This document shows positions 1 through 388 of a DNA stretch of 388 bases, piece after piece. The translations under genes were made by a program, and so were the position numbers. The notes beneath the pieces were generated by a model. It had not been told where the DNA came from. It saw nothing but the letters and a program-made list of their open reading frames with translations, and did no database searches. The DNA lies in the NCBI RefSeq assembly GCF_003334335.1, contig NZ_QOWQ01000199.1, one strand, 5' to 3'. Within the stretch, counting starts at the first letter, position 1, and every line of letters starts with the position of its first letter. The stretch comes from Escherichia coli. GTDB taxonomy: Bacteria > Pseudomonadota > Gammaproteobacteria > Enterobacterales > Enterobacteriaceae.

Positions 1-47
1 AGTGCTCACACAGATTGTCTGATGAAAATGAGCAGTAAAACCTCTAC

Positions 48-123
<76 letters not shown>

Positions 124-124
<1 letters not shown>

Positions 125-166: not shown

Positions 167-242
167 GGGGCTATAGCTCAGCTGGGAGAGCGCCTGCTTT
201 GCACGCAGGAGGTCTGCGGTTCGATCCCGCATAGCTCCACCA
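167..242 (+). tRNA. alaT/alaU/alaV: tRNA-Ala, anticodon TGC (UGC; reads GCN), 76 nt including encoded 3' CCA
   Basis: Folded by hand into a cloverleaf. Acceptor stem GGGGCUA (167-173) pairs with UAGCUCC (232-238) and includes the G3:U70 wobble pair (G169:T236), the classic AlaRS identity determinant. D-stem GCUC/GAGC. Anticodon stem CCUGC/GCAGG with loop UUUGCAC, anticodon TGC at 200-202. T-stem UGCGG/CCGCA with T-loop UUCGAUC. Discriminator A239, CCA 240-242. Matches E. coli tRNA-Ala1B as I remember it. Confidence 0.97.
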
Positions 243-274
243 TCTCTGTAGTGATTAAATAAAAAATACTTCAG

Positions 275-296
275 AGTGTACCTGCAAAGGTTCACT
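275..296 (+). promoter_or_regulatory. boxB-like hairpin immediately upstream of the spacer boxA (imperfect stem AGUGUACC/GGUUCACU, loop UGCAAA)
   Basis: Seen in sequence: 275-282 AGTGTACC pairs with 289-296 GGTTCACT, 8 positions with one U-U mismatch, around a 6-nt loop at 283-288. A hairpin ahead of boxA is the arrangement in nut-like antitermination sites. Functional assignment is inference; the stem is imperfect. Confidence 0.4.
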
Positions 297-305
297 GCGA
301 AGTTT

Positions 306-318
306 TGCTCTTTAAAAA
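306..318 (+). promoter_or_regulatory. Spacer boxA-like antitermination element (TGCTCTTTAAAAA), the expected binding site on nascent RNA for the NusB-NusE(S10) rRNA antitermination complex
   Basis: Seen in sequence: TGCTCTTTAAAAA at 306-318. It differs by one position from the rrn leader boxA core TGCTCTTTAACAA as I remember it. A second boxA in the 16S-23S spacer of rrn operons is established knowledge. Exact functional boundaries are approximate. Confidence 0.7.
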
Positions 319-346
319 TCTGGATCAAGCTGAAAATTGAAACACT

Positions 347-364
347 GAACAACGAAAGTTGTTC
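347..364 (+). other. Perfect 7-bp hairpin capped by a GNRA-type tetraloop (GAACAAC-GAAA-GTTGTTC) in the tRNA-Ala to 23S spacer; likely a pre-rRNA structural element
   Basis: Seen in sequence: 347-353 GAACAAC is the exact reverse complement of 358-364 GTTGTTC, with loop GAAA at 354-357. Function not established from the window. Confidence 0.45.
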
Positions 365-388
365 GTGAGTCTCTCAAATTTTCGCAAC

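Follow-up and report, generated by a model that had tools for sequence, protein, structure and literature searches.

In the ribosomal RNA operons of Escherichia coli, boxB- and boxA-like elements occur in the leader as well as in the spacer, and RNA polymerase is modified at both, suppressing Rho-dependent termination (PMC6614797). One boxB/boxA set follows promoter P2, a second is found upstream of 23S (PMC10250234), and many species have two boxA copies, one upstream of 16S and one upstream of 23S (PMC4807359). The 9-nt core of boxA is UGCUCUUUA (PMC2724277, PMC6614797). Binding of NusB/NusE has been documented for the leader boxA and for the lambda boxA (PMC2724277, PMC3177189), and in the crystal structure NusB-NusE contacts 8 nt of boxA (PMC3177189). 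For the recruitment of the factors boxA is both required and sufficient, and the occurrence of boxB has been called "puzzling" (PMC10250234). Leader boxB is dispensable and deletion of the leader boxA has only an approximately 3-fold effect (PMC10250234); thus, the contribution of the hairpin may be small.

Two described systems can be compared directly with the element studied here. The first is the E. coli rrn leader antiterminator (boxB-boxA-boxC; for example the rrnG/rrnB leader of the rrnTAC structures), which has the same order as the spacer, a hairpin and then boxA. In the leader, as in the spacer, the hairpin lies within a few nucleotides of boxA, and the segment after boxA is the 5' strand (in the spacer, the putative 5' strand) of a long-range leader-trailer helix. 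However, the hairpin sequences of the two are unrelated, and the spacer lacks the alternating-GU boxC that follows the leader boxA, its downstream strand pairing with the 23S trailer. Furthermore, the leader boxA can form pairs with the 16S trailer through its UGCUC, whereas the spacer boxA has no complement in its trailer. The second system is the lambda nutL and nutR sites, which are like the spacer in having a stem-loop and a boxA-type linear element that binds NusB/NusE, as the spacer boxA would do by analogy. The A-rich run after the spacer boxA also resembles the nutL boxA-spacer cgcucuuaaaaauuaa (PMC2724277). However, the order in lambda is boxA, spacer, boxB, opposite to that in rrn (PMC6614797, PMC6614801, PMC2724277), and the comparison made in a preliminary description of this locus, which took its boxB-boxA order to be like that of phage nut sites, was mistaken. 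In addition, the rrn boxA is longer by one U and its first base is U, not C, the rrn system has no N protein, and the rrn hairpin has no consensus and is dispensable. The hairpin loop in our sequence is the 4-nt GCAA, as compared with the 5-nt loop of nutR boxB agcccugaaaaagggc (PMC2724277); neither the boxA-spacer-boxB order nor a boxB pentaloop is present in it.

The stretch of DNA that we analyzed (388 nucleotides, hereafter the window) is over its whole length an Ile/Ala-type 16S-23S spacer of E. coli, and is an exact substring of the rrnA and rrnD spacers of MG1655. With Megablast, the window was found in 5,426 of 5,426 complete E. coli genomes, with identity of at least 99% in 5,397 records, and the matches overlie annotated tRNA-Ile and tRNA-Ala genes. 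Position 1 of the window is 22 nt past the 3' end of 16S; relative to the first base of the rrnA 23S, position 306 is at -120 and position 388 at -38. In an Rfam scan of the window only the two tRNAs and StyR-44 scored above threshold, the remaining matches being due to chance, and no family in that scan models boxA. A promoter and terminator scan of the window returned 0 promoters and 0 terminator-like sites, and an internal promoter or terminator was therefore dropped from consideration. The features are as follows, with the first three given for context.

1 to 35, plus strand: trailer strand of the 16S leader-trailer (RNase III) helix, from its duplex with the rrnA leader
48 to 124, plus strand: tRNA-Ile(GAU), from ARAGORN, the Rfam tRNA model and the ileT/ileU annotation
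167 to 242, plus strand: tRNA-Ala(UGC), from ARAGORN, the Rfam tRNA model and the alaT/alaU annotation
268 to 303, plus strand: boxB-like hairpin, from the minimum-energy and centroid folds and covariation
268-272 with 299-303: outer stem of the hairpin
A273 G274 / G297 C298: 2x2 internal loop AG/GC
275-283 with 288-296 (A275-U296 to U283-A288): 9-bp inner stem, with one U279/U292 mismatch
284-287: GCAA tetraloop
306 to 318, plus strand: spacer boxA 13-mer TGCTCTTTAAAAA, exact match, with the core UGCUCUUUA at 306-314
319 to 338, plus strand: inferred 5' (leader) strand of the distal segment of the pre-23S leader-trailer helix, pairing with +35 to +54 of the 23S-5S spacer
310 to 388, plus strand: match to Rfam StyR-44 (RF01830), from cmscan, its 3' end cut by the window edge

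The copy of TGCTCTTTAAAAA at 306-318 is the sole match in the window, exact or with up to two mismatches; at the latter stringency 0.04 would be expected by chance. We fetched the seven rrn operons of MG1655 and searched them for the boxA motif. The spacer 13-mer was found upstream of 23S in all seven, at -120 or, for rrnD and rrnG, at -111; the leader boxA TGCTCTTTAACAA was found at -144 from 16S, also in all seven. As the preliminary description had stated, leader and spacer differ by a single base, C in the former and A in the latter at position 11 (window position 316), and this holds in every operon. From boxA onward the spacer sequence is identical across the seven operons, and the part upstream varies by operon type. 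The core of the rrn boxA consensus, UGCUCUUUA(ACAA), is matched exactly by 306-314. The motif match, the operon comparison and the two boxB/boxA sets of the literature (PMC10250234, PMC6614797, PMC4807359) make the identity of 306-318 as the spacer boxA secure, and the earlier claim of a second, intra-operon rrn boxA stands. That claim was offered as known biology, and rightly: the spacer boxA/boxB set is already in the literature, and the element, as the second of two boxA signals of the rRNA operon, is textbook material that will not surprise specialists. In our literature search the leader TGCTCTTTAACAA was found verbatim in a few papers and the spacer TGCTCTTTAAAAA in none. Position 11 is outside the 8-9 nt core recognized by NusB/NusE, and thus the A/C difference is unlikely to define a functional variant.

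In local folds, boxA was unpaired in every E. coli spacer and leader variant folded, and it was fully unpaired in 13 of the 27 unique spacers from other taxa. When the whole of 243-388 (146 nt) was folded, part of boxA could pair, and the ensemble was diffuse, with a frequency of only 0.0037 for the minimum-energy structure, and for this reason we did not rely on the global fold. In that fold 297-307 (GCGAAGUUUUG) can pair with 374-384 (CAAAUUUUCGC), a pairing that would enclose boxA and disrupt the outer stem of the hairpin.

For conservation outside E. coli, one genome per species was scanned for the 25-nt 3' end of tRNA-Ala only, because anchoring on this end alone avoids selection for boxA. 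The scan gave 120 loci from a broad range of Gammaproteobacteria; in 41 of them a 23S 5' motif was found within 900 nt of tRNA-Ala (the spacer class), and 39 formed a stand-alone class. The latter reflects the fact that many marine Gammaproteobacteria have tRNA-Ala(UGC) genes with the identical 25-nt 3' end outside rRNA operons, which provide a natural negative control. G[C/T]TCTTTAA was present between tRNA-Ala and 23S in 37 of the 41 spacers, and two more have a one-base variant; within 300 nt of the tRNA-Ala genes without a downstream 23S it was present at 0 of 39 loci. On this comparison of sequences, boxA is conserved at its place across species and specific to rrn (37/41 versus 0/39). 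Among the 37 motifs, positions 12-13 (AA) are invariant even though they are outside the 9-nt core and were unconstrained by the search; position 1 is T, C or A, and at position 3 either C or T occurs. At position 11, 30 of the motifs have C and seven have A. Thus, other gammaproteobacterial spacers mostly agree at this position with the E. coli leader and not with the E. coli spacer. A occurs in E. coli, Citrobacter, Enterobacter and several further spacers, and C in two metagenomic relatives (L130 and L136); this distribution over taxa indicates that the "variant" is a lineage-level difference.

The preliminary description placed a boxB-like hairpin at 275-296, about 10 nt upstream of boxA. 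The stem-loop is real, but those coordinates cover only the inner part of a hairpin that extends from 268 to 303, so that boxA starts after a gap of 2 nt and not of about 10. The fold (of 268-322) has an energy of -15.1 kcal/mol (z = -2.76); among 200 dinucleotide shuffles, three folded equally well. For the covariation check that had been proposed for the stem, we aligned six distinct Enterobacterales hairpins of the Ile/Ala type on the 14-bp structure. The Hafnia hairpin came from the genome scan and three informative variants came from a metagenome scan anchored on the tRNA-Ala end, a gap, and boxA with its downstream sequence, so that the hairpin itself was not an anchor. The metagenome scan returned 12 loci, mostly E. 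coli-like, and the set is small (six sequences) because few of these variants were informative. In these six variants, standard pairs occupied 96.4% of the cells, as compared with 31-50% when the 3' partners were slid by 1-3 columns; compensatory two-sided changes occurred at 8 of the 14 pairs, and 0 of 500 column shuffles reached the observed covariation score. One of the metagenomic loci is peculiar: L134 (contig VOFK01000505.1) has an E. coli-like spacer with the pre-boxA segment atactcatcttcaggtacctgcaaaggtttgcgatag, which resembles a hybrid of the Glu and Ala types, and does not form the usual hairpin.

The hairpin of the window is carried by the Ile/Ala operons A, D and H of MG1655. The Glu operons B, C and E have an unrelated sequence before boxA (aatatctcaaaactcatcttcgggtgatgtttgagatatt), and rrnG has a third one. 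Nevertheless, the three hairpin types all end at boxA and leave it unpaired in the local folds, and they have a common layout of outer stem, 2x2 internal loop, inner stem and tetraloop, although the loops of the Glu type are UUCG or GUUA and the stems are unrelated to those of the window. Among 27 unique gammaproteobacterial spacers from other taxa, 23 have a hairpin that stops 0-3 nt upstream of boxA, and the median z of the 45 nt upstream of boxA in these 27 is -2.6. Small as the set of six variants is, its covariation is in line with both of these comparisons, the unrelated Glu-type hairpins and the 27 spacers. What is found at this locus is therefore what has been described for rrn boxB, a stem-loop directly 5' of boxA with a conserved structure and no sequence consensus. 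Within the six Enterobacterales variants, the AG/GC internal loop is the same in all, though the stems covary, and five of the six have a GNRA loop (GCAA, GAAA or GCGA). The invariant internal loop, the GNRA loops and the common layout hint at a constraint beyond simple helicity.

The GNRA loops and the invariant internal loop could be read as signs of a true lambda-nut-like site, with the hairpin bound by an N-like host factor, as the analogy in the preliminary description implies; lambda boxB has a GNRA-like fold (in a reference cited in PMC10250234). However, the order of the elements is reversed relative to nut sites, no host homologue of N is known, the rrn boxB lacks a consensus and is dispensable (PMC6614797, PMC10250234), and the Glu-type hairpins of this genome carry UUCG or GUUA on unrelated stems. 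We therefore regard recognition by an N-like factor as very improbable. A different reading of the same segment is that the hairpin 268-303 and the U-rich UUUUGCUCUUU after it are an intrinsic terminator or a pause site inside the operon. The hairpin is indeed stable, significantly so against shuffles, and is followed by a T-rich tract, but its stem is A/U-rich and broken by an internal loop, the window scan gave 0 terminator-like sites, and other taxa have CGCTC or AGTTC without a U-run right after the hairpin. The site is, moreover, upstream of 23S inside the most heavily transcribed operon of the cell, and a role in termination or pausing at this place is hardly credible.

The sequence downstream of boxA was compared with the 23S trailer. 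The segment 319-338 (TCTGGATCAAGCTGAAAATT), which starts right after boxA, is complementary to +35 to +54 of the 23S-5S spacer (NC_000913.3). The duplex has an energy of -22.9 kcal/mol, as compared with -11.1 +/- 2.6 for shuffles, of which 0 of 300 were as good. Folding the full 23S leader against the trailer gave an artificial chain of interior loops, and for this reason only shuffles of short segments and comparisons of native with non-native pairs were used. Complementarity to the trailer, beginning with the first base past boxA, was also found, with different sequences and thus in a covariation-like manner, in Enterobacter, Marinobacterium, Shewanella, Vibrio and Endozoicomonas, as well as in a Bathymodiolus symbiont and one operon copy of Thiomicrorhabdus. 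Native leader-trailer pairs had a median energy of -18.4 kcal/mol and non-native pairs -9.6 kcal/mol, and the native trailer was the best partner in 7 of 12 distinct spacers; in 3 of the 12, with 120 nt of trailer searched, no such complementarity was found beside boxA. These comparisons suggest that the pre-23S leader-trailer helix has a distal extension, beginning at boxA, of which 319-338 is the 5' strand. A large-scale catalogue of 23S leader-trailer helices has been published (PMC11404451), and the helix itself is thus probably not new; boxA is not mentioned in that survey, and older papers may describe the juxtaposition of boxA and the 23S helix. The spacers of Vibrio, Shewanella, Marinobacterium, Endozoicomonas and others then have the same series of elements as the window: a hairpin, [T/C/A]G[C/T]TCTTTAA[C/A]AA, and a strand complementary to the 23S trailer.

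There is a parallel in the leader, in which boxA is likewise followed by a strand that pairs with window positions 1-35 in the 16S RNase III helix. The duplex of window 1-35 with the rrnA leader from -144 to -105 has an energy of -49.1 kcal/mol and spans the leader boxA through boxC, and only the first 5 nt (UGCUC) of the leader boxA are within it. A boxC-spacer duplex has been described for rrn (PMC6614801). We also considered the spacer boxA as a strand of the 23S helix, and this was rejected, because its complementarity to the trailer did not exceed that of shuffles (-8.1 versus -8.0 +/- 2.0, and -5.1 versus -5.4).

The match to StyR-44 begins 4 nt into boxA and thus overlaps the element, but StyR-44 is not a model of boxA. 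It scored 93.4 bits, where the gathering score is 54 (E = 2.4e-15), over model positions 1-79 of 107. StyR-44 is a processed fragment of the 23S leader, and a 109-nt fragment was detected by northern blot in Salmonella and E. coli, although the authors could not exclude that it is a maturation intermediate (PMC2943607); it is not known to have a function of its own (PMC2943607). Long-range pairing to the 23S trailer would have a competitor in the hairpin of the StyR-44 model (329-339 with 374-384). From the match over 310-388 and the northern blot, as well as from the ability of the first five bases of the leader boxA to pair with the 16S trailer, it might be argued that what keeps the 13-mer conserved is an RNA structure or membership in a stable small RNA (as a strand in a processing helix or as an sRNA's 5' end) and not the binding of a protein. 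However, the complementarity of the spacer boxA to the 23S trailer is no better than chance, the boxA sequence is constant across genera while the flanking helices change and covary, and the motif recurs in the leader; the fragment may itself be an intermediate, as noted above. Conservation of the 13-mer for such reasons is very unlikely.

We conclude, with a probability of approximately 0.88, that 268-318 is the second, intra-operon nut-like element of the rRNA operon, consisting of a boxB-like hairpin (268-303), a 2-nt gap and a probably single-stranded boxA (306-318). By the mechanism that we propose, with the binding step taken from the literature, the nascent spacer boxA leaving RNA polymerase would be bound by the NusB-NusE(S10) dimer. 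NusA, NusG, SuhB and S4 would join it, so that the rrn transcription antitermination complex is formed or re-formed and the nascent RNA is tethered to the polymerase across the 2.9-kb 23S gene. The tethered complex would elongate faster and in a Rho-resistant manner, and the tether would keep the pre-23S 5' end close to the RNA exit channel, to pair with the 23S trailer approximately 3 kb later. The location of boxA beside the 5' strand of the pre-23S helix is what would place this strand, held by the tethered complex, near the exit channel. A fresh boxA in the spacer is plausibly needed for reloading, because the RNase III cut of the 16S leader-trailer helix severs the leader boxA. The spacer element was reportedly tested directly by Berg et al. 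in 1989 and by Pfeiffer and Hartmann in 1997, who are said to have found that it makes transcription Rho-resistant or is required if 23S synthesis is to be efficient. The delivery model explicitly takes in the spacer element (PMC6614801).

The preliminary description assigned to this boxA the role of keeping the polymerase termination-resistant through 23S. This is the classical reading, but Singh et al. in 2016 favored looping and maturation (PMC4807359). They reported that, when NusB or SuhB is missing, transcription of rRNA is still largely Rho-resistant, and argued that BoxA and the Nus factors serve mainly in the maturation of rRNA, through a loop between BoxA and RNA polymerase, and not in antitermination (PMC4807359). 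Thus, the antitermination component may be minor in vivo. A 2026 preprint shows that the assembled complex greatly raises co-transcriptional processing of the 16S helix by RNase III. One possible explanation of the spacer element is then that the Nus factors do bind, and that its real job is co-transcriptional looping or chaperoning of the RNA for the folding of pre-23S and its RNase III processing. The immediate adjacency of boxA to the covarying, trailer-complementary strand 319-338, in the way that the leader boxA adjoins the 16S helix, is in agreement with this. However, BoxA-dependent suppression of Rho termination has been observed in reporter and in vitro systems (PMC6614797, PMC4807359, and the 2026 preprint), the published data on looping concern the 16S leader and not the spacer, and the two roles are mutually compatible. 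We consider that the chance of looping being the real job is close to even, falling a little short of it. It overlaps with our preferred reading of a second nut-like element and departs from the antitermination claim of the preliminary description. The function of this element is better put as recruitment of the Nus/SuhB complex and tethering ahead of 23S, for processivity, with the tethering probably also serving formation of the pre-23S helix.

In the proposed mechanism the hairpin would act as an auxiliary, sequence-independent helix. It is plausible that it docks on the dsRNA site of NusB-NusE, which would give a role to an otherwise unexplained hairpin without a consensus; the rrn geometry, with a helix ending 0-3 nt on the 5' side of boxA, agrees with such docking. 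A more far-reaching possibility is that gammaproteobacterial spacers have a conserved three-part module, made of a covarying helix 0-3 nt from the 5' end of boxA, boxA itself, and, from the next base on, the covarying 5' strand of a distal pre-23S leader-trailer helix. In this module the dsRNA site of NusB-NusE, which is sequence-independent, would receive the hairpin, and the main job would be handing the strand to the trailer 3 kb later, and not antitermination. We offer this tentatively, with the odds somewhat against it. What the present analysis adds to the known element is a correction of the nut-order analogy, the true extent of the hairpin, and sequence-based evidence of structural selection on both the hairpin and the strand that follows boxA. 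Such selection fits the current move from seeing the Nus/SuhB complex purely in terms of antitermination to seeing it in terms of looping and maturation, here for 23S and not 16S.

Finally, a minor difference between the operons of MG1655 may be mentioned. The distance of boxA from the annotated 23S start, which is shorter in rrnD and rrnG than in the other five operons (-111, not -120), corresponds to a 9-nt difference in length in the last approximately 38 nt before 23S, beyond the end of the window.
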